Source: Cyanidioschyzon merolae (taxonomy: Eukaryota). Taken from it: a DNA stretch of 64,000 nt. A program made the translations under genes and the position numbers. The notes beneath the pieces were generated by a model. That model was not told where the DNA came from, searched no databases, and saw nothing but the letters and a program-made list of their open reading frames with translations. Below, piece by piece: positions 20,963 through 64,000 of this stretch (within the stretch, counting starts at the first letter, position 1; every line of letters starts with the position of its first letter). The stretch lies in the NCBI GenBank assembly GCA_000091205.1, contig AP006496.2; one strand, 5' to 3'.

Positions 20963-21599
20963 TCTTCCTGCCGGCCAAAGTGTGTGTGTGCGCTAGTGCC
21001 TGCAACGCTCCTGGTACGCCTCGGGGGAGTATAACGGAGAATTGCTCGCGGGCTGGTGACCCGGGCGACGCGATCTCCGGGAGGGGCTTGAGGCGGCGCG
21101 CGCCATTGCGCAGCGTCACGCTTTCGTCTGTTGACTGGTGTTAACGAGAAACGTCCAATAATTGTATTTAAATGTATTAAATGATACAAAAATGAAATAG
21201 AAGCGTCAGCCTCATCTGGATGTGCTCGGAGCACGGAGACGGCTGCGACGATTTTTACGGTTTGACAGATCGCTCACATTGACCATGGATCGCAGAATGC
21301 GGAGTTGATGGATATTGGCTTTCAGGAAAGCGTCCATCATGCCGCTGCACCCTATCTTCAGTTTCCATTATTCACGCTTCCTTTCGGCTGTACTGCTCGT
21401 CTAGTACGTTCTATCGTGCGCTGAGTTCCTGCTTTGAGCAGCCGCCGTAGCGCCTGTACCACTTGAGCGAATGCATCACGGAGACAGAACGGCTTTTTCC
21501 GTACCACTGAGGGCGTTGGCTCGAGGCGAGCATCATCCGGCACGGGGTCGGTGTATATCATCATTGTGGAAGCCTGCAAACTGCGCAGACAGACCAAGA

Positions 21600-24361
21600 G
21601 CTTGCGGTAATGGGAAGCGATATGCAAGGAGACCATCGCGACCAGAGCGACGCCCAGACGGTGCCTACCCGCTCCTCGTCCCAGCGTAGACTGCATTGGG
21701 GACGAGTCGCTCAGATCTCACTAAAGCACGTGCAAATGGGGCGAGCATCAAGCACGAGCGTGGGAGACTCGTCTCGCGTGCGGGACCTTCCGCACAGGCG
21801 GCAACCTTTCGACAATACGGGAAGATTTTCCCTCTTTTCATGTTTATCGTTGAGGGGGAATGAAATCGTTACATCTTTGCTATTTAATGATTAGTCTCTT
21901 TTCTTTTTTCCGTATTGTGCGGTCGATACGCGCATCTCCATATCTGGCAGGCATGAGACACGACGTGCATCTCGCTGTTGAGGGGAAACGAGATCCTGAC
22001 CTTTAGTGTGCAGCTCTAACCTACAAGTTGTATTATGGTTGAAGTCATAGCAGAGTATGCTCTCTCGATTCAATCGTGTTTCAGCCCTCAAGCAAGTACA
22101 TTCAAGTGATTTTCCACGATTTATAGCGGACGCATTCGAAATAGGATCTTTTTCAAAAATAAAAAAGAAAAGTAATCGAAATGGAAGTAGAGGATCCCGG
22201 AGGCGCGGTGTCACCTGCTGGTGGAAAAAAACGAAAAACAGAGTCAAACGTAGAGGAACAAGACATGACGAAGAAGCAGAAGAAGAAGGCCCGACGCCAA
22301 AGGCTGCGAGAAAGATGACAATACTACGAGATTGTTGTAAAAGCCTGTCTTCTTGGATAAATCAAGGATCTGTACAAGCAAAAGTTACGAGAGGCCATCA
22401 GAAACTGTGTAGATTCGTACTCCATGAGTGGTATAAAGGCTTCGTCAGGGCTAATGCATTTGGTGAAGGAGCTGTATCGGGACCTGATGGAAATCAAAAG
22501 ACGCGTGGTTCCGGAAGGTTTATTCAACAAGACCTTTTTTCGCCACCTGATTGTTGGCACAGGGGCAGCGTCGAGAAGAGATGAGGGAATGCACGCCCTC
22601 TACGAAAAATTCGCCGAATTCCGCTTCGACGGTACTCGATACATGGGTGATGCGGATATTTACGGATGCGGGGCAATGAAGTACCTCACGAATCTGAAGA
22701 ACAATATGCTCAGTATCCTCGAACGTTTCATGTTACGTTCTATCTTTGCGCTGTACCCGGGCCTGTCTCGCAATGGGATATGGGGCATCATCGAAAGTAT
22801 CACGAACAATCGCCAGCATGAAGATAGGATCCAATCCGTCGACGACAAGACATCACGCAGGAGCAGGAATGAAGCTTCTGTATTGCGTACGGCTATACAG
22901 GAGCATCGTGCGGTACGGGGACTGGCGAATCCTGCAGAAAAGGTAACGGAAATGAAAAAAGATGTTATCACCTCATCCTAAGCTATTTCGTGCTTCTGGA
23001 CCGAGAACTCGAACGCAAGGCAGAGATGGAGCTGGGCGTGAGAAAAAATGAAGAGTCGTTGGAACGGAAGGCTTTCCTGATGTGGAAGCGCTTCAACGTG
23101 GTTCCGTTGTGCAACATCAAGTCACATTTTGTGACTATCGACTCCGGAGTCGTTCATGGCATCGTAAGGGAGATCAGTCCGGAGTTCGATGTAAGCAAGA
23201 TAGAGTTCACCGATGAAACGCGGGAGACGTACTGGAAGAATATCTTCGATTTCAAACGTCTCAAAGTGAGCAAGCAAAAGCAGTTCACTGGGATGATCGA
23301 AACCGATGGAGAAGCCATCTGCGTACATCATCGGCGCTTGAAAGCAGATCGTCCAGTTCCGTCCTCGGCTTCGCCCTCGGCGAAGCATGAAGAAAAGAAG
23401 GTGGCGGATCCTGCGACACAGAAAGTGCAGGACAACGACTTTGTCGTTGGCGCGGCCCCCGGGAACTTGAATATCACAACCATTGAAGCACCCAAGTGTG
23501 CGGAACATGGTGACGACGGCAACTGACGTCAGAAGGACATGCGTCTTGTAAAGTTCTCAAGGGCGAGGTATCGCCTAGAATCGTGAATAATGAATGCAAG
23601 GAAGAAATTTGGGACTTGGAATGCAGGAGTGAAGGAGCGCCTGGAAGCTATGAGCGCGGTGACGAACCGCGGAGCGGGCTTTGACTATTTTCGGGAATTC
23701 ATGGAAGTTCGCATTGCTCATTGGGATGCGCTGTGAGGGGAGTACACCAAGTCACGATTAGCTCGTAAGTGTATGAGACTGTACTGTGGGAAGCAGCTTC
23801 GCGTCGCGAACTTCTTCAATGAATTGAGCGCCCTCAAAGAGGATGAAAGGCGGAGGCTTGTAACAGCATACGGAGCAGGACGCTAGGCTTCCAAAAAAGG
23901 AGCATACCTGTTCCATCGACAAGAGTGTACAAGGAGTGCACACATCGTTTTCTCACGATACGGGTAGATGAGTTCTGAGCGTCGTATACACACTTCGAGC
24001 TGGGGTGTATACTCCAGAGGGTCGAGATGGAAAAGTGCCAGCGGAGCTCTAAGGATGTAAAAAAGTACGGAGCGCTGAAAGAACAGGAAATGGAACGGAG
24101 GGCACAGGTTCGAGAACTCCTTGCACTGGTGGGTACAACCAACGGGGGCAAGAAACGCATGGAGTTCGAGAACGGTGACTTGTTCTCGCCGCAATCAATA
24201 GAACGAGATATGCGGTCCCGGAGAAGAGACCCGACGCGCTAACACGATCTAAAATTCGCAGGGCAGCCGTGCAGTGTCGAGGTGTACAACGAGAAACTGA
24301 AACCAGTAGCAGAGGGCCGGTCCAAAAAGACTGGAGGCGTCTGCACGTCAGTTGGAGATGT
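21600..24361 (+). mobile_element. copy 1 of the 2.3-2.8 kb repeat family (putative Fanzor/TnpB-like element), with a decayed ORF
   Basis: The 5' flank 21600-22056, the 80-bp 5' box, the ORF and the 3' terminus ...ctggaggcgtctgcacgtcagttgga are all shared with the minus-strand copies at 44569-47400 and 51339-54090. Confidence 0.6.
22181..24242 (+). pseudogene. decayed ORF of repeat copy 1, with in-frame TGA and TAA stops at positions that are sense in copy 2, plus frameshifts. The RuvC-I-like box is mutated (AAPGN)
   Basis: MEVEDPGGAVSPAGGKKRKTE... RER* ...LLG*IKD... is one frame carrying two stops. Later it gives [19 protein letters not shown] and TRVYKECTHRFLTIRVDEF*ASYTHFELGC. Confidence 0.55.
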
Positions 24362-25675
24362 ATTGTCTATGGCGGTCACTCGCCACTAATGTGCACCGGT
24401 TATGCAGCGTTTGATGATTGAACGGCATGCCTGTGCTGGTGGTGGTGGTGCTGCGATGCGCAGGACGCACAAACTCCGGCCTGCGTCGTTGCATCGCAAG
24501 GAGAAAAGATACGTCAGGGCAGGAGCAGGCGCCTACGAGTATCCCGCCTGTCATGTCTGCGCGGTGCAGGTTCATTTGGTGGCTGTGCATTGGGTGCAGC
24601 GCGATGCACGCTTCTACAATGACTTGGAACTGTGTAACGCAACGATTGGCGGTAGCGGGTTGCATCGCTGTTACTTCATGGTGCAGGTGCAGCCGCTGTA
24701 TGTATCCCGCGAACTGAGGTACCACTCTCATCGATTCATGCACAAGCGCTGCGGCCATGCACTGATGCTGCGTTATGGGCGTCGGTGAATCGGCGAACAG
24801 GCTTCTCGCTCCACGGACTAACCTTCAAAAGCTTCGATCAAAAAGCCTCTGGGAGCGGGTTTTCTCGTTGCGGACCTTAAAAGGCGATACCGTACAATTC
24901 TGTTGGCATCGTATTCGGAAATCGCAGCAGAGGAGCGCCAAGCATTCCGTGGCTGGTTTGCGAGATTCGCTGTCTGCTAGGCGAGGACTATGGACCTGAG
25001 CCACTCCCGACGCAGTGCCAGGCGAGCATGCATGCCACCCCTGGCACATCGCTATGATGCTCATATGTTCAAGGTCCAAGTATGCCCAGCCACGGCCATC
25101 GCTCCAATGCTGACTTGCTGGTGTCAACAGGACAACACCCCGTCTCCGCAAGGCTATTTCTTTATGAACCGGCCATGTCCGGAAACGTAAGCATAGCATG
25201 ACAGAATCCTGTATGATATAGGATAGAGACGATGGTTTTTAATTCTCTAATCAGCAGGAGAGAGAGCGTTGCCAGCGAGCACGCTGCGCGAACAACAGGA
25301 ACGGTTAGTGGTCGCTGCTACCTCTTGTCACGTAGATTATCACTCGATCACCCAGATGCACTTGTGAGCGTAGCGCCCATCATCCCTGAATTCCGAATCC
25401 TAGTGAAATGTTCCCCATGAGTGATAAAACTTGCCTGTGTAGACGATCCCCAAAGCGCCGGTGGTGCTGTAGCCGTCCACCTGCTGCGCCTCCGGCTTGC
25501 GCAGTCCTAACGCAGATGACGCGTACGCTGTCGTGCAGCGCCACAGTGTTACGCCTACCTGTTGCCGTTCGGGTTAGGTAGGTTTTGTTTTCGGGCGCTC
25601 CGTCTTGGTGTAAGCGGTAGTCAGAGGTGCTCGGCGCAGGAGCAGCGACAACCGAGTGTTGCGCGTGCGTTTCCC

Positions 25676-30933: not shown

Positions 30934-32129
30934 CACCCATATCAGACGAAACGGGAAGGCCTACAAACAGATGACTCGAGCGTCCGTTCAAAAGTTCGGG
31001 TCTATTGCCAATGCCATCCAACATGGGCCTCCGCGTGCCTTTGAGCTGCCTGCTGTTTTCGCTCTCTCTTACCTTCGGATTTACATGCGCCTGTCGCTCA
31101 TGAACCTCTCCCAGCTGCGATGTCAGCCGTCGACAGATGTCGACGGGAGCGTTCAAGTCCCGACTGCGCCGTTCCCGGCAGTTGTCGACGCATTTCGTGC
31201 ACGAGCGGAAGTTGCAATGCACAACCCGTCTGCCGTTTTTCATCCTCTCTGTACTCGGACGCAGACTGCCCGTCACCACGATGACATTTGATCGCACTCA
31301 GGTGTTTTCGCAGGTTAAGAACACGTGCCTCTCTGAACGCCGCTCTGTGGCGCGTGAACGCTTGCCTCAGTGCTCGGTAGACGCCCTTGGCGGGTGCAGG
31401 AGGCTCCACTCGATGCACTCTTCCATATCCCCGCCCAGTGCCGTACATCTGAATCACGGGCTTGTTCTGGGCGGTGCCTTTGGTATCTACGTTGTTCGCT
31501 GTATGTGCACGCGCACGGTGCTCGCTCCAATAAAGGACTTGCGGGACGCCTTCTTGCCCATATGAAACAAGTGCCAGAGGGAAGTCCGGCCAGACGAAGA
31601 ATTCGCGGCGGTGCGATTCGCCCACGCGCGCGTCTTGCACAGCGCTGACGCGTTCTCCAGTGGAGGCGCTCGCTGCGATAACTAGGGTCCGAGTCCAGTA
31701 CACGGTGCTGTGTAGGCACAGGAGCCGCGATGCTCTGTGAGCGTACTCCCTGAGAGGCAACATGCTGCTGCTGAATGCCGCTGGGTCGATGGCCACGAAC
31801 CAAAGAGCATCTGCCTTCGGAACCAGGTCAATGATCTCCGGCGACAAGCACAGTGAGCTTTAGGCATCGTGCTGTGAGCAAGATGTCGAAAGCAGACTTT
31901 GAGCGTTTCTCGGCGTCCATAAAGCAGCGCAGGCCTCTGCGCCAACGTGTTGCCTTGAAACAGAAATGCAGGATAGCTGACGCATATGTGATTTGAGCAT
32001 TCTGCACATAAGGAAAGGAGAAGTGTGCAGGCGTGAATGTAGGTATTGGATCATGGTATTGGTTTTGCTACAAACCGCTGTCCCATGATGTCGCGAGTCG
32101 CCTAGAGTCCGGTGAGCCACCGAATACCA
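30934..32129. repeat. left arm of a large inverted repeat. It is 1196 bp and about 98-99% identical to the reverse complement of 35270..36464
   Basis: Read directly. Identity begins at cacccatatcagacgaaacggg (the reverse complement of 36443-36464) and ends at ...ggtgagccaccgaatacca (the reverse complement of 35270-35290). All ORFs in one arm reappear on the opposite strand of the other arm. Confidence 0.95.
31098..31847 (-). CDS. hypothetical 249-codon ORF carried by the left inverted-repeat arm. Its function is unknown and the track ORF begins at a TTG
   Basis: It has mixed amino-acid composition and is intact in both arms with only 3-4 aa differences (for example FSSSMLPLREY versus FNSSMSPVREY). 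In both arms a same-frame ORF lies immediately upstream, separated by one stop codon. The true start is unresolved. Confidence 0.35.
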   Translation of the reverse strand: MSPEIIDLVPKADALWFVAIDPAAFSSSMLPLREYAHRASRLLCLHSTVYWTRTLVIAASASTGERVSAVQDARVGESHRREFFVWPDFPLALVSYGQEGVPQVLYWSEHRARAHTANNVDTKGTAQNKPVIQMYGTGRGYGRVHRVEPPAPAKGVYRALRQAFTRHRAAFREARVLNLRKHLSAIKCHRGDGQSASEYREDEKRQTGCALQLPLVHEMRRQLPGTAQSGLERSRRHLSTADIAAGRGS

Positions 32130-35269: not shown

Positions 35270-36464
35270 TGGTATTCGGTGGCTCACCGGACTCTAGGCG
35301 ACTCGCGACATCATGGGACAGCGGTTTGTAGCAAAACCAATACCATGATCCAATACCTACATTCACGCCTGCACACTTCTCCTTTCCTTATGTGCAGAAT
35401 GCTCAAATCACATATGCGTCAGCTATCCTGCATTTCTGTTTCAAGGCAACACGTTGGCGCAGAGGCCTGCGCTGCTTTATGGACGCCGAGAAACGCTCAA
35501 AGTCTGCTTTCGACATCTTGCTCACAGCACGATGCCTAAAGCTCACTGTGCTTGTCACCTGAGATCATTGACCTGGTTCCGAAGGCAGATGCTCTTTGGT
35601 TCGTGGCCATCGACCCAGCGGCATTCAACAGCAGCATGTCGCCTGTCAGGGAGTACGCTCACAGAGCATCGCGGCTCCTGTGCCTACACAGCACCGTGTA
35701 CTGGACTCGGACCCTAGTTATCGCAGCGAGCGCCTCCACTGGAGAACGCGTCAGCGCTGTGCAAGACGCGCGCGTGGGCGAATCGCACCGCCGCGAATTC
35801 TTCGTCTGGCCGGACTTCCCTCTGGCACTTGTTTCATATGGGCAAGAAGGCGTCCCGCAAGTCCTTTATTGGAGCGAGCACCGTGCGCGTGCACATACAG
35901 CGAACAACGTAGATACCAAAGGCACCGCCCAGAACAAGCCCGTGATTCAGATGTACGGCACTGGGCGGGGATATGGAAGAGTGCATCGAGTGGAGCCTCC
36001 TGCACCCGCCAAGGGCGTCTACCGAGCACTGAGGCAAGCGTTCACGCGCCACAGAGCGGCGTTCAGAGAGGCACGTGTTCTTAACCTGCGAAAACACCTG
36101 AGTGCGATCAAATGTCATCGTGGTGACGGGCAGTCTGCGTCCGAGTACAGAGAGGATGAAAAACGGCAGACGGGTTGTGCATTGCAACTTCCGCTCGTGC
36201 ACGAAATGCGTCGACAACTGCCGGGAACGGCGCAGTCGGGACTTGAACGCTCCCGTCGACATCTGTCGACGGCTGACATCGCAGCTGGGAGAGGTTCATG
36301 AGCGACAGGCGCATGTAAATCCGAAGGTAAGAGAGAGCGAAAACAGCAGGCAGCTCAAAGGCACGCGGAGGCCCATGTTGGAAGGCATTGGCAATAGACC
36401 CGAACTTTTGAACGGACGCTCGAGTCATCTGTTTGTAGGCCTTCCCGTTTCGTCTGATATGGGT
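35270..36464. repeat. right arm of the large inverted repeat (1195 bp)
   Basis: See the left arm at 30934..32129. The spacer between the arms runs 32130..35269 (3140 bp). Confidence 0.95.
35552..36301 (+). CDS. second copy of the 249-codon hypothetical ORF, in the right inverted-repeat arm
   Basis: It is 98-99% identical to 31098..31847(-). Confidence 0.35.
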   Translation: MSPEIIDLVPKADALWFVAIDPAAFNSSMSPVREYAHRASRLLCLHSTVYWTRTLVIAASASTGERVSAVQDARVGESHRREFFVWPDFPLALVSYGQEGVPQVLYWSEHRARAHTANNVDTKGTAQNKPVIQMYGTGRGYGRVHRVEPPAPAKGVYRALRQAFTRHRAAFREARVLNLRKHLSAIKCHRGDGQSASEYREDEKRQTGCALQLPLVHEMRRQLPGTAQSGLERSRRHLSTADIAAGRGS

Positions 36465-36727
36465 GTAGGTATGCAACGCATCCGCGTGCTTGCGAACGTG
36501 CGTCGATTATGTACATAACTGGACACTACTGGCCACTTGCTCTGATCGTCGCCGCGGGGAGCTGGCGCACGGCCTCGGGGCCTGCCCTCGGCACCGGCCC
36601 CGCAGCCGATGCCGGTACGCGCCGTGGGCCGTGCCAATCCAGAATCGTATCCACGACACTAGTGCTTACGATTCGGTGTGAAGCACAGTTTTCGCAAGCC
36701 ACAGTTGTTCACTTTTGCGCTATCAAC

Positions 36728-44498: not shown

Positions 44499-44568
44499 AC
44501 CAACAACGCCGTTCTACGTCGACCGACGTCAGTGTACAGTAGTGGCGAGAAACTCGCCCTGGCCAAGA

Positions 44569-47400
44569 AGTCTGCAACTGACGTGCAGACGCCTCCCTGT
44601 CTTTCTGGGCCGGCCACCGACTACATCTTACATATTCTTCTCATATAGTTCCACTTTGAGAGGTTGTCCAACAAAGTTCGTTCTTGGCGTCTCTGGAGGT
44701 CTCTTCTCCAGCACCGCACATCTCCATATATTTAATGGCGGCATTAAAATCTCGGTTCACGACTTCCATCCGTTTCTTGCCATTGATTGTACTCACTAGT
44801 TTAAGTAGCCCTCACACTTTTGCCCTCCTTTCCATTTGCTCTTCCGTCAGCGGTCCGTACTTTGCTATTTCCTCAGGACTCCGCTGCCACTTTTCCATCT
44901 CCACTCTCTGAAGTGTACTACCCAGGTCATGGTGTGTATACGACGTTCGAAACTCATCTACAGGTATCATAACAAAATGCCGTGCAAACTCCTTGTACGC
45001 CCTCGTCGTTGGAGCTGGCGTGGTCCCATTTTTCGACGCCGAACGCCCTGCCCCATAAGCCGCAACCAGCCTTTGACTTTCATCCTCCTTCAAGTCGCTC
45101 AAATGATTGGAAAAGTTGGCAAATGCCCGCTGCTTCCCACAATACAAATTCATACACAAAACGGGTCCACTGGAGCTTGGTATATTCATTCCACAGCGCA
45201 TCCCAATGAGCAATGCGAACTTCCATGAATTTCCGAAAAGCTTGAAAGTCCGCTCTGCGGCTCGTCACCTCGCCCATAGCTTCCAGGTGATCCATCATTC
45301 CTGCATTCCATGCAGCAATTTTCTTCCTCGCATTCATTATACCGACTTCTCGATAGAATCTTGCTCTTGAGAACCTCAACAGACGCATGGCTTTCTGACG
45401 TAATTTACCATCAGCACCATCTTCCACACGCTTGGGTACCGCAATGGTGATGACATTCGTATTCCCAGGGTCCGCGTCAACGACAGAGTCGCTCTCATGC
45501 ACTTTCTGTTCCGAAAGACCCGCCTCCTTCTCATCTTCTTGCTTCGCCACGGGCGAAGCCGAGGTCGGAAATGGCCGATCTGTCTTCAAACGCCGATAGT
45601 GTACACACATGGCTACTCCATCAGTTTCGCTCATCCCAGTGAATACATTTTGCTTGCTCACTTTGAGACGTTTGAAATCAAAGATATTCTTCCAGCACGT
45701 CTCCCGGTTCTCGCCGGTGAACTCTGTCATCCTTACATTGAACTCCGGACAGGTTTCTCTCATTATGCTGTACAGGACTCTGGAGTCGATTGGCATAAAA
45801 TGCGACTTGATCTCGCACCTCGGAACGACGTTGAAGCACTTCCCCATCCGGGCAGCTATCCGTTCCAACAACGCTTCATTTTCCCCACTCAGCTGCCTTT
45901 CGGCCTTGCGTTCGAGTTCCCGGTCCAAAAACACAAAATAGCGCAGGAAGAACGGATAACATTTTTCTTATCTTTTTTCGTAGCTGATACCTTTTCCGCT
46001 GTATTCGCCAGCCCCAAGACTGCACGGCGCTCTTGAACAGCGGCACAGATCACAGAAGCTTCATTCTTTCTCCTGCGTAATGTCCTCTTGTCGAAGAATT
46101 CGATCTCCCGTTCATGGAAGCGATCGTTCTTGATGCCATTGATGATGGCCCATATCCCTTTGCGAGATAGGCCCGGGCAGAGTGCAATCACGGCGCTTAT
46201 CATGAAACGTTCGAGATTCAAAGTCAAATGTTCGTTCAGGTTCTTGACGCACTTGATCGCCCCCTATGCGCAAATATCCGTGTTATACTTCTAGCGAGTA
46301 CCGTTGAGGCGGTAGTTGGGGTATTTTTCGTGGAGGGCATGCGCTCGATCGTTTCTCCTCGACGTTTCCCCAGTGCCGAACATCAAGTGACGAATAAAGG
46401 ACTTGTTGAAAAACTCTCCCAGAACGCCGACTATTTTGACGTCCTTCATATCGCGATACATCTTCCTCACCAAATGCATCAGTGCTAAAGAAGCGATGTG
46501 AACACTCATGGGGTAAGACTCGACACGGTTTCTCATCGCTTCTCGCAACTTTTGCTGGCAGGGATCCTTGATATGGCCGAGAAGACAGGATTTCACCACC
46601 ATAACGTCGTATGATCGTCTTTCTTGCAACCTGTGACGTAGGGCCTCCTGCCATGGCTTCTCCGCCTTGTCTCGTTCCTCTTTGCTTGGCTCTGTTTTTC
46701 GTTTCTTTCCGCCAGCCAGCGTTACTGGCGCTTCAGGATCCTCCATTTCCATTTCCATAACTTATCTTCTCTTTATTTTTGAAGACGAACGCACATGGAA
46801 GGGTTTTGCTGTAAACCGCGAAAAATCAATTGAATTAACTTACTTGAGGGTTTAAACACGACTGAATTGAAAGACTATAGTTTGCTCTGACTTTTACGCA
46901 TATACAACTGGGCCGTTAGAACAACAAGTCAACGAGTGATCATGATAGCGTCGCTCTTCTCAACGGTAACATGCGCGTCGTGCTCGTGACTGCCAGATCA
47001 CGAGGTGCGCTGACCGACCGCACTATATACCACGATAAACAGAGACCAGCTACTAACTAGCACCGAGATAACAATTTCTTTGCCCTCTACGATAAACGCT
47101 GAACGGAGAAAAGGTTTCCATCTATCGAAAGTTTACCTTCAAGGCAGAGGGTCTTGGGATCAGGGTGTCTGCCGGGCTTGCGCTCCGTGCAACTCTGCAG
47201 TGGCGAGTGGCGTGACGCGACCTGAGCTGCTCGTCCCCAACGTAGTTTATTCTTGTAGAACGGGCAGATAGGCTGCGTCTGGGCGTCACACTGGTCACGC
47301 TGGACTCCTTGTAAATCGCTTCCCGCTGCCGCAGGCAGTACGCCTGTCTGCGCAACTTGCTGGTTCCCAGAGTGCTTATGAATCGCGACCCCGTGTCGAG
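44569..47400 (-). mobile_element. copy 2 of the repeat family (putative Fanzor/TnpB-like element). It is the most intact copy and retains the D-A-D-P-G-N box
   Basis: The 3' terminus (on + coordinates 44569-44800) tctgcaactgacgtgcagacgcctccctgtctttct...ttccactttgagaggttgtccaacaaa matches 51339-51470 and the reverse complement of 24250-24361. The 5' box lies at 46780-46880. The 5' flank to about 47400 matches 53600-54090. Confidence 0.6.
44812..46758 (-). pseudogene. ORF of repeat copy 2, split into four frame-shifted pieces (46291..46758, 45889..46227, 45080..45934, 44812..45213). It is a putative TnpB/Fanzor-like RuvC nuclease with a degenerate zinc finger
   Basis: The N-terminal basic stretch GGKKRKTEPSKEERDK looks like an [25 protein letters not shown] is RuvC-I-like (compare TnpB vGIDlGiknlatlsdG). 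RLLRFSRARFYREVGIMNARKKIAAWNAGMMDHLEAM resembles the TnpB helical bundle (l.r..rkk.ks.nrkKar.kiaklh.kianqRkD). TTRAYKEFARHFVMIPVDEFRTSYTHHDLG aligns with TnpB l.YKAe..G..V..VdP.YTSQ.Cs.CG, but both Cys pairs are lost. Confidence 0.45.
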
Positions 47401-47843
47401 TGCACCACCCCTAGAGCCCACGCTCTCAATGGTATGGCAAAAACGTCCTGTCGCCGCGATGCATCGGCTCCAGTAAGATAGGCGGTATGCTGGGTACTTA
47501 CGATAGACACGCGGCTCACGATAGAACGTACAAAGCGACCACTACATCTGAGTACAGGTGATGGAACTTGAAGATAAGCCCATCATGATGGACGCTTTCT
47601 CAATAGCCATTATCCATACATCCCAAAATCTGGAATGTATGGACCATGTAAACGTTTTGGTTTCGAAAACAAATCGGACACCAGAGCGACGCACGGCATC
47701 GAAGCGCTCACGTCAATTAAATAGCGAGCGCGAGGCGGTATCGGCCCTGGAACTTGTGGTAGCGGCAGCGCCAGCGTCAGAGGAGTTTCGTGGGATAGCT
47801 GCTTTGTGCTGCTTGGCCATGGCAATCCACAACTAACTCAGAT

Positions 47844-50924: not shown

Positions 50925-51338
50925 AGGTTTTGTCGGAGGTGCTTGCTCGTGTCCAGCTTTTTACTGCGAAGCGTGTGCGGAGTATCGGGCTCGAGCGACT
51001 GCCTGAAGGGGGGAGGGGGGTGACGAAGCCGAACGGGGAAAGCGTATAACGTTTGATGCAGTTTTATAGGAAGGACGGTTTAAAGCATGTTTTGCTTCGC
51101 GACGCTTTTACAATACGACTTGATTGCGCGCTTCGAATAGCCTGCCGCGTACTGGAAAGATCGCTGTGGTACGCGTAAATCCATTACAAACTTTTGAGCT
51201 GGTGCTGCCTGAGTATTCAGATTATGCTGGGGAAAGATCTGTCAATGGTCTTGCCTCATCGCTTTTTATCCAACTTCGGTGCGACCTTCGCAGCGGTGTA
51301 CAGTGGTAGCGGTGAACGCGTCCTAGACATGACGTCTC

Positions 51339-54090
51339 CAACTGACGTGCAGACGCCTCCCCGTCTTTCTCGACCGGCCACCTACTACTGACTTCAACTT
51401 TTTTTCATATAGTTCCACTTTGAGAGGTTGTCCAACAAAATTCTAGCCTGTCAACTGTGGAGGTCTTTTCTCCATCACCGCACATCTCCGTATAATGATT
51501 GCGGCGTTAAAGTCTCGGTTCACGAAATCCATACGTTTCTTGCCATCATTCGTTGTACTTACTAATGCAAGTAGTCCACGAACTTTCGCCATCTTTTTCA
51601 TTTGCTCCTCCGTCAGCGGTCCGTACTTTTGTATATCCTCGGGGCTCCGCTGGCGCTATTCCATCTCCACAATCTGAAGTGCGCACCCCAGTTCATGGTG
51701 TGTATGGGACGTTCGGAAGTCATCTACGGGTATTGTAACAAAACGCCTTGCGCACTCCTTGTACGTTCTTGTCGTTGGAGCTGGCGTAGTCCCTTTTTGG
51801 GTCTTCAAGCGCCCCTGTCCGTACGCTACTACGAGCCTCTGACTTTCATCCTCCTTCAAGGCGCTCAACTCATTGAAAAAATTCGCGAATGCACGCTGCT
51901 TCCCACAGTACAAGTTCATTCGCAGACGAGCCCACCGGGGCTTGGTATACTCCTCCCACAGCGCATCCCAATGGACAACACGAACTTCCATGAATTTCCG
52001 GAAAGCTTCAAAGTCCGCTCCACGGATCGTCACCTCGCTCAAAGCTTCCATTTGATCCTTCATTCCTGAATTCCAATTCCCGATTTTCTTCCTTGCATTC
52101 ATGATTCCCGATTCTCGATTGTATCTCGCTCTCGAGAACCTCAAATGACGCAGGTTTTACCTACGTAAGTTTCATTCAGTGCCATCTTCCCGACGCTTGG
52201 GTACAGCGATGGTTATGATATTCGTGTTCCAGGGACTAAGGCCGAAGACAAAGTTGTTTTCGTTGGGATTATACGTCCCATGGCCCGTCTTCTTGTTTTC
52301 GTGCTTCGGCAAGTGAGATAATGAAGACGGGATAGGACGACCTGCCTTCATCCGCTGATAGTGTACACATATGTATACTCCATCGTTATCGATTGTCCCA
52401 GTGAATACCTTTTTTTGCCCGGTTTGGGACGCTTGGAATCGAAGATATTCTGCCAGTAGGTGTCCCGGTCTTCGCTGATGATCTCTTTGTTGGTTACATC
52501 GAGCTCTGGACAGATCTCCTTCATGAAGTTGTAAAGGACGATGGAGTAGATATTCACAAAATGTGACTTGAACTCGCATAACCGAACACCAATGAAGCGC
52601 AACCGTAGAAGCGATTGAATATCATCTCTCCAACTCTTCATTTTTTCCATACTCAGCTCCATTTCGGCCATGCGTCCGAAATTGGTCCAAAAACATGAAG
52701 TAGGGGAGAATAAGGGATAACATCTCTCTTCGTTTTTTCTCATATCTGACAATTCTCCTCTTGGGTTGACAAGCCCCAAGACCGAAGGATGCTTTTGAAT
52801 AGTCGCGCGGATAACAGAAGCCCTATTTTTTCTACAGCATGATGTACCCTTGTCGATGAATTCAATCTCCTGTTCATGCTGGCGATCGTTTTTCATACCA
52901 TCGATGATTGCGCATATCCCTTCACGAAACAGGCCCGGATACAGCGCAAGGACGGCGCGTACCATGAAACAATCGAGGTATACGATCTTATTTTTCCTCA
53001 CATTCGTGAGGCACCTCATTGCCCTGTATTCGTATGTATCTGCGCCACCCTTGTATTTGGCACCGTAAAAGCGCGAGTTTGCGTAATTTTTCGGAGAGCA
53101 TGGACTGTCCCATTTCTCCACGAAGTTTCCCAGGTGCCAAACATCAACTGGCTGACAAAGGTCGTGTTGAAAATTTCTCCCTCTCCAAATGCACCAGTCC
53201 CAAAAGACGCGTTACAAACATAGCTTGAGCACGAATCGCCATCGTTTCTGAAGGCCTCTCGCAACTTTTCCTTGTACGGATCCTTACCATGCCCAAGAAG
53301 ACACGATTTCATCACCATTTCATCGCTCTGTCGTCTTTCTTGCAGCATTTGACGTAGGGCCTCCCTTTTTTGCTTCTTTGCGTTATGCTATTCCTCTACA
53401 CTCGGCACAGTCCTTTGTTCTCTTCCGGCGGCCGGCAATACCGGTCATCCAAAAACCTTCTACCTCCAGTTCCATAAGTTTTCTATTTTATAAAAAACAT
53501 TATGGACGCTTCTAGTTTAAACGGCGGCAAAGCAGTAAAATACTTTAACTTGAATATTGAAACACGATTGAAGTAATACCGACACTTTGCTACCATTTGA
53601 TCGCAAACACAACTGGCCCCGATACAGCCGCAGGTCAAAAAGTAGCCATTATCGCATTTCTCTTCACCGGCGAGACAGGTTGCGTGTTGTGACGGCCACA
53701 TATCGTGGTTCGCGTACGGGCCACACAATACAAAAAAAGAACGGAGTGTGGCCGATTACTAGCAACGAGGTAACGGTTCCTTTCCACATCTGTTGCAGAC
53801 CTTGAAAAGAGGAACCTTTTGCTCATGGTCTAACGATTACCTTAGAGGTGGAGGGTCCCACAAACCGGAAGACGCTACCTGCTTTTGCTCCGCGTGACTC
53901 TTAGTGGTGGAGAATGTGACGCACCTGAGTATCTCGTCCGAATCGCGTATGGTTCTGGGACTAGGAGCGGGTGTGCTGCATTTGGGCGTCACCTTGGTCG
54001 CGGTGGACTCCTAGTATACCGCTTCGCGCAACCGCAGGCTGATGGTCTGCATGTACAGCTTGGGGGCTCCCAGAAATATAAATAGCCCTG
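51339..54090 (-). mobile_element. copy 3 of the repeat family (putative Fanzor/TnpB-like element), decayed
   Basis: Its termini and ORF are homologous to copies 1 and 2. The 5' box is tgaaacacgattga at 53551-53564. The flank 53600-54090 matches 46900-47400. Confidence 0.6.
51656..53477 (-). pseudogene. decayed ORF of repeat copy 3 (pieces 53016..53348, 52348..53121, 52172..52579, 51656..52144). The RuvC-I-like box is mutated (LSPWNTN)
   Basis: The N-terminus MELEVEGFW...RRKRTKD...* carries a stop. [26 protein letters not shown] is the RuvC-I-like box. The C-terminal piece is TTRTYKECARRFVTIPVDDFRTSHTHHELGC. Confidence 0.5.
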
Positions 54091-54827
54091 ATTCCGTTTT
54101 GCGTGAACCAAGCCTCTTCTGACGCGCTCAGTGGTATACCAAGGCTGTTCTGTTTCCGTAGCGCATCCGCACCAGCGCCTTAATCGCGACGGTGGGTGCA
54201 TACGACTGGCACTCGACGCACGAGAGAACGTATGAAACGGCCAGTGCATTCGAGAACTGGTAAAAGCGATGGAACGTACAGATATTGCTCAGCATGATGG
54301 ACGCTTTCCCGAAAGGCAATATCGATCCGGCAAGCTGGGATACATGGTCAGTGGAAATGTTCTGTCGAACTAAAGAAAGCATATCGCGGGAGGGAATTCC
54401 TTAATGGCTCTGGTGTTCGAAGCATCGCCTTGGCAGTGCGTATGCGCTGATATCATCCTGCCGGAGGGAATTCCCTTATACTTCCGCTGGGCCGAGCCCT
54501 TGCGTTCAGCGGCGAAGTTTATCCACGATCGTCGTGATCTCCGAGCGGAACGTTGCGCAGCGCTTAGCGCGAAGTACTTGCGAGGTTACTGGTCGGAAAA
54601 CTGGGAGCTTTACCTAGTTTCTGAAAAGGACATAGACCACTTGTGCTAGTTCCACTCAAAGCTTGAAATTCTACAGGAGGCTTAGGTAAGAATCTGTGCA
54701 ATTGACGGACGATCACTCGTGCAGCTACACAACAGAGGTTTTTGACTGGATACGCACGCTTACGCGAACCTTCCTAGGTGGTGACGCACTCGGCAGCTTT
54801 GCACCGGAGAAAACCTAATCCAAGAAA

Positions 54828-56039
54828 ATGCAAGCCCTTTTCGTTTCTGTCCCGTTGTACCAGGAAAGATACATTGTTCGCGCGCGCGCTGCAACTCGAG
54901 CACCGTTCCCGCTGCGTACGCCTCGTAACGGGTGCTTCGCAGCTGGACATTGTCACCACTGCCAGCATCCGCTTCCTTTGGTGGTGCAGCGTTTGCCTGT
55001 AGCGCGCCGGCACCACGCGCTGCATCTTCGTATGGGCCCGAAACAGTCGCAGATCGCTGTGATCACTGGCGCGTCCTCTGGGGTCGGTCTGTATGCAGCT
55101 CGCGCTCTGGTCAACAAGGGCAACTGGCACATCGTCATGGCATGTCGTGACATTGATCGGGCGGAGCGCGCAGCAGACAGCGTGAACCTCCCAAAGGACG
55201 CCTATACAGTGCTGCATTGTGATCTGGCTGATTTCGCCTCTGTACTAAAGTTTGTGAGAGAGCTGTCAAGTGTGGCGCGCGTCGATCACCTGGATGCCCT
55301 GATCTGCAATGCCGCAATCTGGCATCCGCGGGACAAGAAACCGCGTTTCACGGTGGACGGCATCGAGGAAACCATGCAGGTATGCCATCTGAGCCATTTG
55401 CTTCTATGTCGGGAGCTGTTGCCGAAGCTGAAAATATCGCGCGGGCGCATTGTGTTTCTGACGACTCAGACACACTCGCCGAATTCGTTGCCGGGAAAGA
55501 TCCCCCCGCAGGCTCGTCTCGGTGATTTGTCTGGTCTAGCCGCGGGGCTTGGTCCGCAGACGACGGGCATGGTGGACAGTGGCCCGTTTGAGCCCACAAA
55601 AGCCTACAAAGACGCCAAAGCCGCGAACGTGTTGACAATGAAGGCGCTCAGTGATCGATACGGCCGCGACGGGGTGACCTCTGTGGCAATCTTCCCGGGA
55701 TGTGTCGCCGACAGCAACCTCTTCCGCGAAAAGCGTGGCTGGTTCCGGCACGTATTCTTCCCGATTCTTCAGAAGTATATCACTCGGCAATACGTTCCGA
55801 ATGATGAGGCCGGCCGCCGCGTAGCCGAAGTGGCGACCCAGGGACAGTTCTCTGACTCGGGCTCGTATTATCAGTGGCGTGGCAAATATACTGAAGGTCG
55901 AGAGAAGACGAAACCGCAGGTTATTGAACCAACTTACGAAATCGACAAGGCAGATCAGCTTTACGAACTGAGTCTTGATCTGATCGACCAGGCGTTACGG
56001 AGGCGAGGCCTCAAGTCGACTATCTTGGCCCCTGTCTAA
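54828..56039 (+). CDS. POR: light-dependent NADPH:protochlorophyllide oxidoreductase (SDR family), with an N-terminal plastid transit peptide
   Basis: AVITGASSGVGLYAARALVNKGNWHIVMACRDIDRAERAA matches POR [37 protein letters not shown]. The catalytic YKDAKAANVLTM matches YKDSKVCNMLTM. The region between those two blocks, CNAA.......P.FT.DG.E....NHLGHFLL...LL..L, aligns with POR. The POR-specific loop and the C-terminal YW.W block are both present. Confidence 0.9.
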   Translation: MQALFVSVPLYQERYIVRARAATRAPFPLRTPRNGCFAAGHCHHCQHPLPLVVQRLPVARRHHALHLRMGPKQSQIAVITGASSGVGLYAARALVNKGNWHIVMACRDIDRAERAADSVNLPKDAYTVLHCDLADFASVLKFVRELSSVARVDHLDALICNAAIWHPRDKKPRFTVDGIEETMQVCHLSHLLLCRELLPKLKISRGRIVFLTTQTHSPNSLPGKIPPQARLGDLSGLAAGLGPQTTGMVDSGPFEPTKAYKDAKAANVLTMKALSDRYGRDGVTSVAIFPGCVADSNLFREKRGWFRHVFFPILQKYITRQYVPNDEAGRRVAEVATQGQFSDSGSYYQWRGKYTEGREKTKPQVIEPTYEIDKADQLYELSLDLIDQALRRRGLKSTILAPV

Positions 56040-56376
56040 GGTTTGTTAGTGATGAAAATGAGATGCGGCTTCGGAGCGCAGACCGCTGCTTCAAGAACAG
56101 ATGTAAGAGCAACAGCGTAACGATGAGACGACACCCCACTGTCACAATCGGATAGCGGACGGATGGGTGGGCACTCCTCCTGATGTGGAGAACCAAAATT
56201 GCTTCGCAAGTCATAAAGCGTACTGCAGTAGTGATTAATATAGCTATAGCTATGACCTACTTCGCATCGAATGCGCCAGAGACTGCCAACTGCGGTCGTT
56301 CAAGAGGGCAGAGCGCGTTTATTTGGGTAATTTTGTGCGGTGAAGAATACGGCAATAGAAGCGCACTTGCAGACTT

Positions 56377-57802
56377 TTGAACGCTCTGTGGGTATTCGAT
56401 ATCAAACTGGGTCAACGGGCATGGATTAATGGAAGCTCGGTAGTGAATACTCTAGCAGTATATGGGGCATTGAGCGAGTCAGGCCCGAATAGTGTACCAA
56501 GTACTCGCTATGGATCAGCTTTCTGGGACACTAGTAGGACTGATCCGATCGTATTTGTTGGAAATGGATACATAAACACGAGCGGCAGTGACTTTCTCAA
56601 TGATGTCTTTGCATTAAAGAAAACATTCCCTACTCCAACACCGAAACCTACGCGGACACCCACCCCATTGCTCCAATGAGCTCTGCGGATCTCCAGGACA
56701 GTGCATCAACCAGGACGCATGCGAGCAAGTCGGGTGCTGCTTTAACTCCCAGACAAACGCGTGCATCCTGAAGAGCGTCTCAGCGGCGTGCAGCGCTGTT
56801 GAAGTGACGCAACGCGTCCCCTGCGGCTGGAACTATATCTACCCCGACGAGTGCACTGCGATACCGGGATGCTGCTGGCAGCCAACGGCAAACGGCATCC
56901 TGGCACCCTGGTGCTACTACGACATCAACCATGCACCGCAGGCTTCCGTAGCGCTGCAGGAGATGCAGGCACCGGTTCCCGTCTGCGCATCACCGGGAGC
57001 GCAGCGCCAGCCATGCGGCGACGTGGGTATCAACCAGTTTACCTACTATGCCCAGGGCTCCTGCTACGACTCGCAGGCGCAGAACCAGTGGGTGCAGAAC
57101 GGCAAGCAGCAGAGCGACTTTGCGTCGAACCCGTACTGCTTCCAGCCTGAGAAGACGTGCGCGGTGGGCGAGTTTGAGCGCCAGCCGTGAAATAACGTGG
57201 TGAATCAGAACCAGCAGCGGAGCAACAATAACATCAACAGTAGCCAGTTTGTGCGTCTGCTGAACACGGTCCTTTACGGAGAGCAGCACGGGACGCAGCG
57301 CACGAGCTACGCGTCGCAGCAGTGTCTGGAGGCTGGTTGCTGCCTGGGGATCGGCAACGAGTGCTTCCAGCCGGTTACTGAGTATGTTTGCCAGACCTAT
57401 GGGTATGCGTCGAACTCGCTGAGCGGCACGACCGGCAAAGTGTCGAACTCGACGTATATTCCATGCGGCTCCGAGTGCTGCAACGCCGAGACGCAGAACT
57501 GCACGTAAAACCCGTTCAGTAACAACAATAACCAGCAACTGCAGCAACAGCAGGTGCTGTTGCCGTCATTCTGTGTGTGCAAGGACCCTACAGTTCAGTC
57601 CGGGACGTACCTGATCGCTTCGGATAACCTTGTGCACAAGGTGCGTTGCTGCCGCTCTGGCGAGGAGTGCATCAACAACAAGTGTATGATGATTAGTCCT
57701 ACGCCGTCTCCGAGTGCCGTTATTGCGACTGCAACTGCGTCTGCAAGTGCGTTGGTATTGGTGTCGACCTCGACGCGTGCCTCAGCAAGTACTTCAGTAT
57801 GA
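56377..57802 (+). pseudogene. decayed or truncated paralog of the downstream Kelch gene. It comprises a last Kelch blade plus a Thr/Pro linker (56377-56679), then, after a frame change, a single frame 56618-57802 encoding trefoil(P)-like Cys-rich modules separated by N/Q-rich linkers and interrupted by in-frame TGA (57188) and TAA (57506)
   Basis: SAFWDTSRTDPIVFVGNGYINTSGSDFLNDVFALKKTFPTPTPKPTRTPTP parallels AVLWNTDQNDPVLFGGQGSSGSYNDLFTLYIATSTPMPTATPTPT at 59700-59870. The frame 56618.. encodes LCGSPGQCINQDACEQVGCCFNSQTNAC... and VPCGWNYIYPDECTAIPGCCWQPTANGILAPWCYY (pattern C-x9-C-x5-CC-x12-C). ORFs 56804..57190, 57197..57508 and 57554..57802 are all in the same frame. Confidence 0.5.
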
Positions 57803-58429
57803 ACCACTGCGTAGACGGCAGCTATCTGTACGGCCCCGCGCGCGCGAACCCAGAACTAAATATATGTTTCAGTTATTGATATACTCATTCCATGAGGAAC
57901 GTGGGTGTACAATATAGTTCGCACGTGCATGCAAGCAACCTTTCAGTCCGGGTTGGGGGCCCATAATTTAATGTTGAGGGTATCTGGACACCAAACATAC
58001 CCCTAGACGGGATGTCAACAAATATGCAGATGGCCTGCAGAAAGAGGGAGTTTTTCGTACTGCGTCATAGCGGGTCGGGTCCGAATGTGCGACGGGCATG
58101 CCATTAGCCTTTTTGGATGTTTGGACTCTGCATGGGTATCTGAAATACGACTGCGGCGTAGACTGCTACTTTGTATTGCCATTACGAGAGCGCCTTCATG
58201 AAACTCGGTAGAAGACGCTGCAAAATATCTTTGTCCGTTTATTATAGAAATGTCCTGTTGTGGGAGCGCCGTGCGCAGATCTGCGTCATTCAGACGGCGG
58301 TGCTTGACCCGCTCCCGTACTGCTTACCTCAGAATACTTCGTGGAGGCTCGTAGGGGTACGGACGGAGACAACAGTGACAACAGTACCAGCAGCTGGAGG
58401 CTCCCCTATCCCAATAGATAGTAAGCAAC

Positions 58430-60676
58430 TTGTTTCTCTGGGAGGCGTTTACTTTTCACTGGTGCAGAACCCCTTTCTTATCCTATATGCGAAAAAGGTA
58501 TTTTTCTATTGTGAGACTCCTGGTTATAGTATTGGTTGTGTCGGGAACACACACAGTTCGTGGAGTTTTGTCCGCAGAGAATACTGTATTATGGACCTGG
58601 ATCGGTGGTAGTAGCTCTAACGGCAGTTCAGGTAGCTACGGTGTTCAGGGTGTGCCGAACACCAGCAACGTGCCTCCGGCGCGGTTCGGTGCGGCCTTCT
58701 GGAACGGCGCTGACGGGGTGCTCTGGTTGTTTGGAGGTGGCAGCGACTTGAGAGACGTCTTCGGTGATCTCTGGAACTACAATCTAAGCACGTTCTCTTG
58801 GACCTGGGTTGGAGGCTCTTCATCCCTCAACTCTGGAGGGGTATACGGCTCCCTCGGAGTTCCCAACAAGAGCAACTATCCGCCTTCGAGGACGGAATCC
58901 GCTGCTTGGAGTGACAGCAACGGAAACCTTTGGTTATATGGAGGCTGGAATTTGAACTTGGGCTATAGTGATATGTGGATGTATAATGTATCGTCGGGCG
59001 AATGGACATGGGTGCAGGGATCCAACGAGACCAATGTTCCCCCGACATATGGTCCTCTTGGGAAGTCGTCTTCAAGCAACACGCCTGGCGGTCGTTACCA
59101 ACCCGCGACCTGGGTTGGCCTAGATGGCCAGTTTTATCTCTTTGGTGGATTTTATCCTTTTGGTCATTTTTACGGTGACCTGTGGCAGTACAACACAGTG
59201 ACCAACGAATGGAGCTGGATAGGTGGCACTCAACAGCAGACTCCCTCTGGAAGCTATGGTACGTTTCGCCAGGCATCGCCGAACAATTATCCCGCTGGAC
59301 GTGCCGGAGCCACATCGTGGCGAGACCTTGATGGGAACTTTTGGCTCTTTGGAGGTTTCGGACAGATTGTCGGATCTAGCAATCTTCTCAATGATTTATG
59401 GCTGTACAATGTCAGCTCCAAAGAATGGACTTGGATGTCTGGAAATGACAGTGTTGGTTCGAATGGGTCGGTATACGGCGAGAAAGGAGTGCCGTCATCG
59501 AGCAACACTCCGGGGTACAGATCCGGTTCCTCTGGATTTGTAGACTCGTCAAACACTCTGTATCTCTTCGGTGGTAGTTCACCCGGTGTCTGCAACGACC
59601 TGTGGACGTTCAATATTACGAGTCTTGAATGGACTTGGGTAGACGGTGACGATACAACGAATGGAGCCTATAGCTACGGCGAGGTTAACAAGACAAGCAA
59701 TACAACGCTTCCACCTCCGCGATACGGTGCAGTTCTTTGGAATACCGATCAAAACGACCCGGTCCTATTCGGAGGCCAAGGCAGCTCCGGTAGCTATAAC
59801 GACCTCTTCACATTATACATCGCAACATCGACGCCTATGCCGACCGCAACACCGACTCCGACGGCATCACCGACGCCCTCCGTTACTGCATCACCGTCGG
59901 CAACAACGAATGTGACGCAGACCGCTGTAGGCGAAGGTTCTGCGGTCTGCTTCCCCGCGGATGCCTCGGTGCTGATCGATGGTCTGGGCAACAGTCTGCT
60001 TATAAGCGAGCTTCGATCAGGTATGGCCGTGATCGGCGTCAATGGGCGTGGGCAACTGGTCGAAGACAGTGTACTAGGATGGTTGCATAACGAGCCCGGC
60101 GCTACTGCAGAGATTCTTGCGATCAAGACGCTTTCCGGAAAGCAGCTGCGTCTGACGAGACAGCATCTGGTATATCGAGTGATCGAACACTCTAGAGACT
60201 TTGATAGTATGACGACCGCTTTCTCGTGTATTTCACAGAAGCAGCAGCAGCAGCATCAGAAGCACGTAGGTCAGAGCCTTGAGCTGGGTACCTCCGCCGT
60301 TGTGGCAGTTTTCGCGGAAGATATCCGCGTTGGCGACGCTCTGCTGGACGTTGCTGCGCAGCTGCCGGACCCCGTTGTGGCAATCGAGACTTTAGTAACG
60401 CACAATGGTCTCTATGCGCCGTTGACTCGCTCAGGGCGCCTTGCGGTCGACGGTGTTCTCGTGAGCTGCTACGGGACGTACGCATCGCATGCCGTGGCAC
60501 ATGCAGTGTTGTGGCCTGCGCGGGTCGATGCTCTGCGCAAGGTATGGGGATCAGGGCTCGGCACAGAGGGTATTGTGGGTATCATGCCGTATGCAGAAAG
60601 GCTCTATCACATTTGGACGAGTGCAGCACGTGTTTTAACGGAGGCTCGCGTAAGTGTTGTAGTTGCAGCCTGCTGA
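58430..60676 (+). CDS. secreted Kelch-repeat beta-propeller protein with a C-terminal Hedgehog/intein-type Hint (Hog) autoprocessing domain. The likely start is Met-20 at 58487, with a signal peptide
   Basis: Six Kelch-like blades repeat the pattern YG..G.P..SN.P..R...A.W.D..GNLWLFGG......NDLW.YN....EWTW. A TPMPTATPTPTASPTPS linker follows. The Hint N-terminus EGSAVCFPADASVLIDGLG matches Hedgehog GCFPG.S.V. The C-terminal LAVDGVLVSCYGTYASHAVAHAVLWPAR is Hog-like. Confidence 0.8.
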   Translation: MFLWEAFTFHWCRTPFLSYMRKRYFSIVRLLVIVLVVSGTHTVRGVLSAENTVLWTWIGGSSSNGSSGSYGVQGVPNTSNVPPARFGAAFWNGADGVLWLFGGGSDLRDVFGDLWNYNLSTFSWTWVGGSSSLNSGGVYGSLGVPNKSNYPPSRTESAAWSDSNGNLWLYGGWNLNLGYSDMWMYNVSSGEWTWVQGSNETNVPPTYGPLGKSSSSNTPGGRYQPATWVGLDGQFYLFGGFYPFGHFYGDLWQYNTVTNEWSWIGGTQQQTPSGSYGTFRQASPNNYPAGRAGATSWRDLDGNFWLFGGFGQIVGSSNLLNDLWLYNVSSKEWTWMSGNDSVGSNGSVYGEKGVPSSSNTPGYRSGSSGFVDSSNTLYLFGGSSPGVCNDLWTFNITSLEWTWVDGDDTTNGAYSYGEVNKTSNTTLPPPRYGAVLWNTDQNDPVLFGGQGSSGSYNDLFTLYIATSTPMPTATPTPTASPTPSVTASPSATTNVTQTAVGEGSAVCFPADASVLIDGLGNSLLISELRSGMAVIGVNGRGQLVEDSVLGWLHNEPGATAEILAIKTLSGKQLRLTRQHLVYRVIEHSRDFDSMTTAFSCISQKQQQQHQKHVGQSLELGTSAVVAVFAEDIRVGDALLDVAAQLPDPVVAIETLVTHNGLYAPLTRSGRLAVDGVLVSCYGTYASHAVAHAVLWPARVDALRKVWGSGLGTEGIVGIMPYAERLYHIWTSAARVLTEARVSVVVAAC

Positions 60677-63800: not shown

Positions 63801-64000
63801 GAAACCAACACAAGCGAGCGCGCGATTCAGACCACGCGCGAAGGCCGGGGCCCAAAACATAGGAAACGACGAGGCGGTCAAGCTAAAATGCATCGATACT
63901 ACTGCGCGTACTGGAGTATCCAGGTGGCCACACACAGTCCAATGATGGAAAAGATTCCCCTCGGATCAATCGCTAGAGACATTAATACTGGAATGGGGGG
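60900..64000. other. AT-richer tail of the window with no confident gene. Its long ORFs are Phe/Leu/Ser-rich compositional artefacts
   Basis: There is a visible drop in GC relative to the 1-60 kb region. ORF 63210..63935(-) is low-complexity (F/L/S/C/I). Confidence 0.4.

Follow-up and report, generated by a model that had tools for sequence, protein, structure and literature searches.

Genomic setting

In Cyanidioschyzon merolae 10D, the sequence analysed here (64,000 nt, referred to below as the window) makes up the terminal 64 kb of a chromosome of 852,727 bp, and by the length of that chromosome this end is probably 14R. Lying 3–9 kb from this end is a block consisting of a gene for NADPH:protochlorophyllide oxidoreductase (POR; gene P), a degenerate sequence that we term the relic and a Kelch+Hint gene (gene H), all on the same strand (Table 1). 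The product of gene H (BAM81404.1, P0281) is annotated as 'similar to hedgehog protein', and the consecutive accession numbers of the P and H products suggest that nothing has been annotated between them. Both genes terminate normally, as a preliminary description of this DNA had stated, with TAA at 56037–39 for POR and TGA at 60674–76 for the Kelch+Hint gene. A POR gene followed by a hedgehog-like gene constitutes the PH element (Nozaki et al., 2007; PMC1955436); PH elements are the commonest homologous blocks adjoining C. merolae telomeres, and have been recorded at 6L, 7R, 8L, 8R, 11L, 14R, 18R and 19R (PMC1955436). The window conforms to this description, with P followed by H beside a telomere repeat (AATGGGGGG), and the relic occupies the P–H spacer of this subtelomeric element.

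Elsewhere in the window we observed three copies of a repeat of ∼3.1 kb, at 21260–24398 (reverse orientation), 44532–47617 and 51294–54370, which share 68–73 % identity with one another and contain only broken ORFs. A Pfam scan of the ORFs of these repeats, which lie upstream of the relic, gave no matches (0), and copies also adjoin the PH block in the metagenome contigs L001, L008 and L009; the repeat probably derives from a mobile or subtelomeric element that has decayed. Additionally, a 1.2-kb inverted repeat is present, with arms at 30934–32129 and 35270–36465 that are 99.5 % identical and ∼3.1 kb apart.

Table 1. Features of the PH element and of the relic within it (positions are those of the window)
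Feature	Position	Strand	Evidence and remarks
Gene P, NADPH:protochlorophyllide oxidoreductase (POR)	54828–56039	+	Exact match to BAM81403.1; Pfam adh_short
Last (sixth) Kelch blade remnant of a Kelch+trefoil gene	56374–56616	+	Frame 1; tblastn, phmmer
Short Thr/Pro-rich linker remnant, KKTFPTPTPKPTRTPTP	56617–56667	+	Translation; aligns to the Thr/Pro/Ala linkers of L002, L001 and L007
Net −2 bp frameshift, junction of linker and trefoil module 1	56665–56670	+	
Trefoil-like module 1	56669–56767	+	Frame 2; intact equivalent scores 20.7 bits against PF00088, borderline
Trefoil (P-type) module 2, best preserved	56789–56920	+	Residues 58–101 are the best PF00088 stretch; intact equivalent 45.9 bits
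Trefoil module 3	56984–57142	+	Intact equivalent 31.9 bits against PF00088; two invariant Cys gone
Cys-rich module 4, with Q/N-rich insert	57158–57367	+	No Pfam match; holds TGA 57188–57190
Cys-rich module 5	57389–57508	+	Holds TAA 57506–57508
Cys-rich module 6	57572–57685	+	One invariant Cys changed to Ser
Ser/Thr/Ala-rich C-terminal tail with original stop, TGA 57800–57802	57692–57802	+	
Gene H, Kelch+Hint	58487–60676	+	100 % identity to BAM81404.1, 728 aa; Pfam Kelch plus Hint
Telomere repeat, one unit	63992–64000	+	Very end of the window; repeat defined in PMC1955436

A single Kelch blade with an abrupt 5′ boundary

The most prevalent duplicated genes of Cyanidiales subtelomeres encode Kelch+trefoil (K+T) or Kelch+Hint (K+H) proteins, in which a linker rich in Thr, Pro and Ala connects one part to the other; the combinations K, T, H, K+T and K+H all occur (Cho et al., 2023; PMC9812998). 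At the 5′ side of the relic, frame 1 contains no stop codon between a TAG at 56356–58 (the open stretch starting at 56359) and a TGA at 56677–79, and the ORF listed within it (56377–56679) possesses neither an ATG nor a signal peptide. An exhaustive phmmer search with its translation against 1.8 billion representatives returned 1924 matches, essentially all of which were multi-blade Kelch proteins; the peptide is a genuine single Kelch blade. Using tblastn, residues 389–473 of the C. merolae 10D protein BAM79243.1 (P0325) were found to align to 56374–56628 with 66 % identity, whilst the same query revealed no Kelch remnant upstream of 56374, which bears out the preliminary description of a blade without an upstream propeller. 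Similarity to the DNA of L007, a metagenome contig with an intact gene of this type, likewise starts abruptly at ∼56374, and fades at ∼57744. Both the breakpoint and the non-Kelch sequence preceding it are common to all six copies of the PH type known to us here (the window, L001, L002, L004, L008 and L009). The propeller is thus missing because of a 5′ truncation at ∼56374. Members of the K+T family have a signal peptide and a six-blade propeller and, with one blade only and no signal peptide, the window copy is a truncated derivative rather than an intact member of the family.

An upstream exon that could restore the missing start was considered, as a signal-peptide-like ORF starts with the ATG at 56183 and a putative 32-nt intron (GT 56327 to AG 56358) would join it in frame to the blade. 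This was ruled out: L002 reads ATG-TAG at that start, and no branch-site-like motif was seen. An origin as a retrocopy also found no support, with no poly(A) visible and no 3′-UTR homology to the L007 locus.

The blade is followed, as in K+T genes, by a Thr/Pro/Ala-rich linker preceding the trefoil part, and in L001, L002 and L009 this linker is in frame with trefoil module 1. Linker length differs widely among copies: the window relic has 17 residues and L005 ∼50, whilst L006 has > 330 residues of TP/TA repeats, a range consistent with the size variation described previously (PMC9812998). The linker is also a frequent break point of metagenome assemblies (L006 1–1000; L005 1–220).

Trefoil and Cys-rich modules in a second frame

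Downstream of the blade, frame 2 runs from 56618 to the TGA at 57800–57802 and is broken only by the TGA at 57188–57190 and the TAA at 57506–57508; the continuous frame following a frame change, and the two stops within it, are therefore present as first described. Two stops in ∼395 codons compare with ∼15–20 estimated for a random frame (hand arithmetic, at ∼1 codon in 21–25), and a number so far below random indicates that frame 2 was coding until recently. A Pfam search with the translation of this frame matched Trefoil (PF00088) with E=2.9e-14 and 53.1 bits, in two stretches and against a gathering cut-off of 21 bits, which places trefoil domains C-terminal to the linker as is characteristic of the K+T family. 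No match to PF00088 was obtained for modules 4–6. Furthermore, Pfam detected no Hint module in any piece of 56377–57799, as opposed to an E-value of 2.2e-30 for the neighbouring gene H. As such, the proposal that trefoil- or P-domain-like Cys-rich modules stand in place of Hint is upheld, and the spacing quoted for them (C-x9-C-x5-CC-x12-C) is that of module 2.

The six-Cys spacing of the vertebrate trefoil factor (TFF) or P-type domain, C-x10-C-x9-C-x5-CC-x12-C, is also found in the algal modules. In contrast to the vertebrate proteins, the domains of this red alga occur in tandem, fused to a Kelch propeller, and only modules 2 and 3 (and 1 marginally) match PF00088. The origin of the algal TFF-like genes has been called unclear, and possibly convergent (PMC13353863).

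Intact relatives and the parentage of the relic

With the Cys-rich translation as query we found eight proteins, and look-ups of clusters then brought out members from C. merolae 10D, BAM79243.1 and BAM79920.1. Of these, BAM79243.1 (901 aa, annotated as 'similar to trefoil factor') has a signal peptide, six Kelch blades, a TP linker, trefoil/Cys-rich modules and an S/T/A tail, and is an intact paralog elsewhere in the genome of the kind that the preliminary description had proposed to search for. The metagenome contig L007 carries an intact ORF of 908 aa that is near-identical to it, again with a signal peptide, six Kelch blades, a TP linker and trefoil/Cys-rich modules, and with Pfam matches to both Kelch and Trefoil. 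The relic resembles BAM79243.1 throughout its length: the last Kelch blade is alike, the Thr/Pro linker leads into 'P-[IV]-C-x-x-E-[IL]-CGSPGQ', the six Cys-rich modules follow in the same order (across 361 aa, the Cys-rich parts are 82 % identical) and an S/T/A-rich tail completes both. Homology of this tail to the intact K+T loci fades at ∼57744. A subtelomeric location is likewise common to the relic and to K+T genes (PMC9812998, PMC13353863). The relic differs from BAM79243.1 in being unannotated, in the absence of blades 1–5 along with the signal peptide, and in the frameshift, two premature stops and missing Cys residues described below.

K+H genes such as BAM81404.1 (also termed 'hedgehog-like' or Hog) share the signal peptide, six Kelch blades and Thr/Pro/Ala linker, and within Cyanidiales K+H genes it is likewise the last blade to which the relic blade aligns best, but their C-terminal half is a Hint module where that of the relic is trefoil. 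It had been suggested that the blade is a near-copy of the last blade of the downstream gene. This could not be sustained, as the two are only 35 % identical at the protein level and show no DNA similarity by blastn; identity to Cyanidiococcus K+H proteins is 45–47 %, and the last blade of BAM79243.1 is closer still. For the same reasons we rejected the adjacent Kelch+Hint gene as parent and prefer a K+T parent. Hence, of the earlier reading of the relic as a decayed paralog, both the decay and membership in the secreted Kelch-X family stand, whilst derivation from the adjacent gene gives way to a closer K+T relative.

A further relative, the 'trefoil factor' CDCA10G3079 of Cyanidium caldarium (395 aa), is an intact gene of the T-only type and non-subtelomeric. 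Its series of Cys-rich modules is like that of the relic (55 % identity), all 35 of 35 Cys are conserved and the 'TPTPIC' junction is common to both; Kelch is absent, the trefoil modules coming straight after a signal peptide and an S/T-rich linker. Nor is the relic an instance of domain shuffling in progress, as had been envisaged for this locus, for the K+T architecture is an established one (PMC9812998) with intact members of ∼900 aa in BAM79243.1 and L007.

Lesions in the reading frame

A nine-way DNA alignment was used to catalogue the lesions that interrupt what is an unbroken reading frame in the K+T family. At the junction of linker and module 1, the window, L008 and L004 read ACCCC--ATTGC (ATTTC in L004), whereas L001, L002 and L009 lack the −2 bp deletion and retain the in-frame junction ACCCCCATCTGC (Thr-Pro-Ile-Cys, TPIC). 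The TGA at 57188–57190 replaces an invariant Cys, encoded by TGC in the six copies without the stop (L002, L004, L005, L006, L007 and L009), and the TAA at 57506–57508 replaces a conserved Tyr, for which relatives have TAC. Across six intact proteins, the Cyanidium protein at 55 % identity included, 35 Cys columns are invariant; four of the 35 are gone from the window copy if the TGA is counted, one having become Tyr (57044–46), two Ser (57059–61 and 57599–57601) and one the stop at 57188.

Splicing does not rescue the frame. There is no GT in 56620–56680 that might serve an intron across the frame change, and around the two stops the GT...AG strings measure only 22 and 15 nt, at sites where relatives have TGC and TAC.

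A reading of the stops and frameshift as sequencing or assembly errors in an otherwise intact gene, which had been raised at the outset, draws on the position of the frameshift beside a few consecutive C residues (ACCCACCCC), where indel errors readily arise. We rejected it as barely credible. Both window stops are also present in L001 and L008, and the −2 bp deletion recurs in L008 and L004; as these contigs are independent sequences, the lesions are real alleles and not errors. Moreover, the genes on either side agree exactly with the finished 10D genome (PMC1955436), and repair of all three sites would still leave a sequence with no ATG, no signal peptide, a single blade and three missing Cys residues.

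The alternative that the gene is expressed by recoding, with the TGA read as selenocysteine or the stops read through and a programmed frameshift in addition, would gain some plausibility from the exact coincidence of the TGA with an invariant Cys, as an in-frame TGA aligned with Cys codons of homologs is the classic Sec/Cys pattern. However, a eukaryotic selenoprotein gene needs a SECIS element in its 3′ UTR and Sec machinery in the organism. An Rfam scan of 56000–58500 (E ≤ 10) yielded no SECIS and no credible RNA family of another kind, and according to the literature C. merolae has no detectable selenoprotein genes; selenocysteine was rejected on these grounds. Furthermore, the second stop is a TAA at a Tyr codon, L008 has an extra TAG six codons upstream of the TGA, other invariant Cys residues are changed to Tyr or Ser, and the neighbouring genes use both TAA and TGA as stops. 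With stops on a conserved Cys and a conserved Tyr, three more Cys gone and no start codon, expression via readthrough, which the preliminary description had also entertained, appears very unlikely, and we would give recoding as a whole hardly any chance of being correct. Having no start codon, the window copy almost certainly makes no functional protein.

Sister copies and relaxed constraint

The arrangement of P, relic and H recurs in five contigs (L001, L002, L004, L008 and L009), and frameshifts, stops and Cys losses are combined differently in each PH-type copy, with 1–7 Cys gone at differing positions. We took these JGI metagenome contigs as independent sequences only and not as a strain phylogeny; the PH element is multi-copy and the contigs could equally represent paralogous chromosome ends, and thus we did not treat them as orthologs from other strains. 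L002 (P0001) is the only sister copy with a long open frame (455 codons), with one Cys gone and no Met.

Lineage-specific nonsynonymous : synonymous changes numbered 16 : 8 on the branch of the window and L001, 7 : 3 on that of L002 and 7 : 8 on that of L004, compared with 3 : 12 and 3 : 5 for the intact copies L005 and L006; the pooled PH-type branches differ from the intact copies with p=0.006 (Fisher). Pairwise dN/dS was 0.08 between the intact L005 and L006 and 0.24–0.32 between the more divergent PH-type copies. Taken together, the common breakpoint, the lesions and the substitution pattern indicate that the truncation preceded the spread of the copies and that constraint has been relaxed since. 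That dN/dS amounts to 0.24–0.32 and not to 1 points either to partly constrained divergence or to gene conversion from functional paralogs. Two further observations could be held against decay: copies like L002 may have become pseudogenes only very recently, or may still be in use, and the high identity of the blade between the window and L002 (98 %, compared with ∼92 % in the surrounding DNA) could represent conservation rather than recent conversion.

Comparison of window 56300–57850 with L001 6212–7758, L004, L008 and L009 revealed a mosaic. The blade frameshift is common to L004 and L009, and a divergent patch of L001 corresponding to 56606–56670 matches a copy of the type of BAM79920.1 (P0288), whilst the relic DNA of the window is 98–99 % identical to that of L001 and L008 with the POR protein at only ∼87–89 %. 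This non-tree-like sharing of lesions suggests gene-conversion tracts between chromosome ends, and is the pattern that subtelomeric copies would be expected to show under ectopic recombination and gene conversion. In L001, the POR copy itself is split over three reading frames (4745–5948), and the P gene thus seems to be decaying too in some PH copies.

These observations bear on the notion that the relic, although untranslated, is kept as something useful, either as a gene-conversion donor and sequence reservoir for the functional K+T/T genes or as a spacer serving gene H, whether transcribed without coding or regulatory. Its retention in all six PH-type copies, the mosaic of lesions with the L001 patch, and a relic identity exceeding that of the POR protein would all fit such a role. 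Mosaicism and patchy identity are nevertheless expected of neutral subtelomeric sequence under ectopic recombination anyway, and we found no evidence of intact K+T genes receiving relic tracts, so that we regard a retained function as unlikely. Likened to the pseudogene donors that feed subtelomeric surface-antigen families in parasites, the relics might more specifically form a silent cassette archive, exchanging tracts with expressed K+T/T genes by gene conversion; such an archive we consider quite improbable, but if real it would be a source of diversity for the trefoil/Cys-rich surface proteins found on the cell-walled diploid stage.

An annotated copy of similar kind

BAM79920.1, encoded on a 739,753-bp chromosome of C. 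merolae 10D, is a protein of 373 aa annotated as 'similar to trefoil factor' that is 86 % identical to the window relic. Its start Met lies inside a frameshifted remnant of the Kelch blade (MFKHACSDFLNDVFAL...), it has no signal peptide and two invariant Cys are missing, as it ends just before the last one and has another changed to Tyr. In contrast to the window copy, it keeps an ATG and an uninterrupted frame of 373 codons, and was presumably annotated as a gene because these happen to remain. To us it looks like a truncated relic of similar kind in another PH-type copy.

Origin and significance of the relic

Given the truncation, the lesions that recur in independent sequences, the relaxation of constraint and the existence of intact paralogs, we conclude with a probability of about 0.9 that 56374–57802 is an unannotated, 5′-truncated and decayed K+T pseudogene in the P–H spacer of a C. 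merolae 10D PH element. In the sequence of events that we envisage, an ancestral K+T gene in the PH element would have lost its signal peptide and first five Kelch blades, and the element, relic included, would then have spread among chromosome ends by duplication. Thereafter, with constraint relaxed, the copies would have drifted and patches would have passed between them by gene conversion, with the window copy acquiring the −2 bp frameshift, the Cys to TGA and Tyr to TAA changes and the three other losses of invariant Cys.

This is ordinary gene decay, and introduces no new domain architecture, coding rule or mechanism. The K+T and K+H families and the PH element were already known; what is new is one dead K+T member, held in the P–H spacer and apparently omitted from the 10D annotation, and the main importance is one of annotation and bookkeeping. 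Fifteen TFF-like genes have been counted in Cz. merolae, most of them expressed mainly in the diploid phase (2026 Plant Cell; PMC13353863), and in view of BAM79920.1 such counts may include pseudogenes. Beyond this, the differently decayed copies provide a small natural record of the birth, spread, gene conversion and death of a subtelomeric gene family in a very compact eukaryotic genome.
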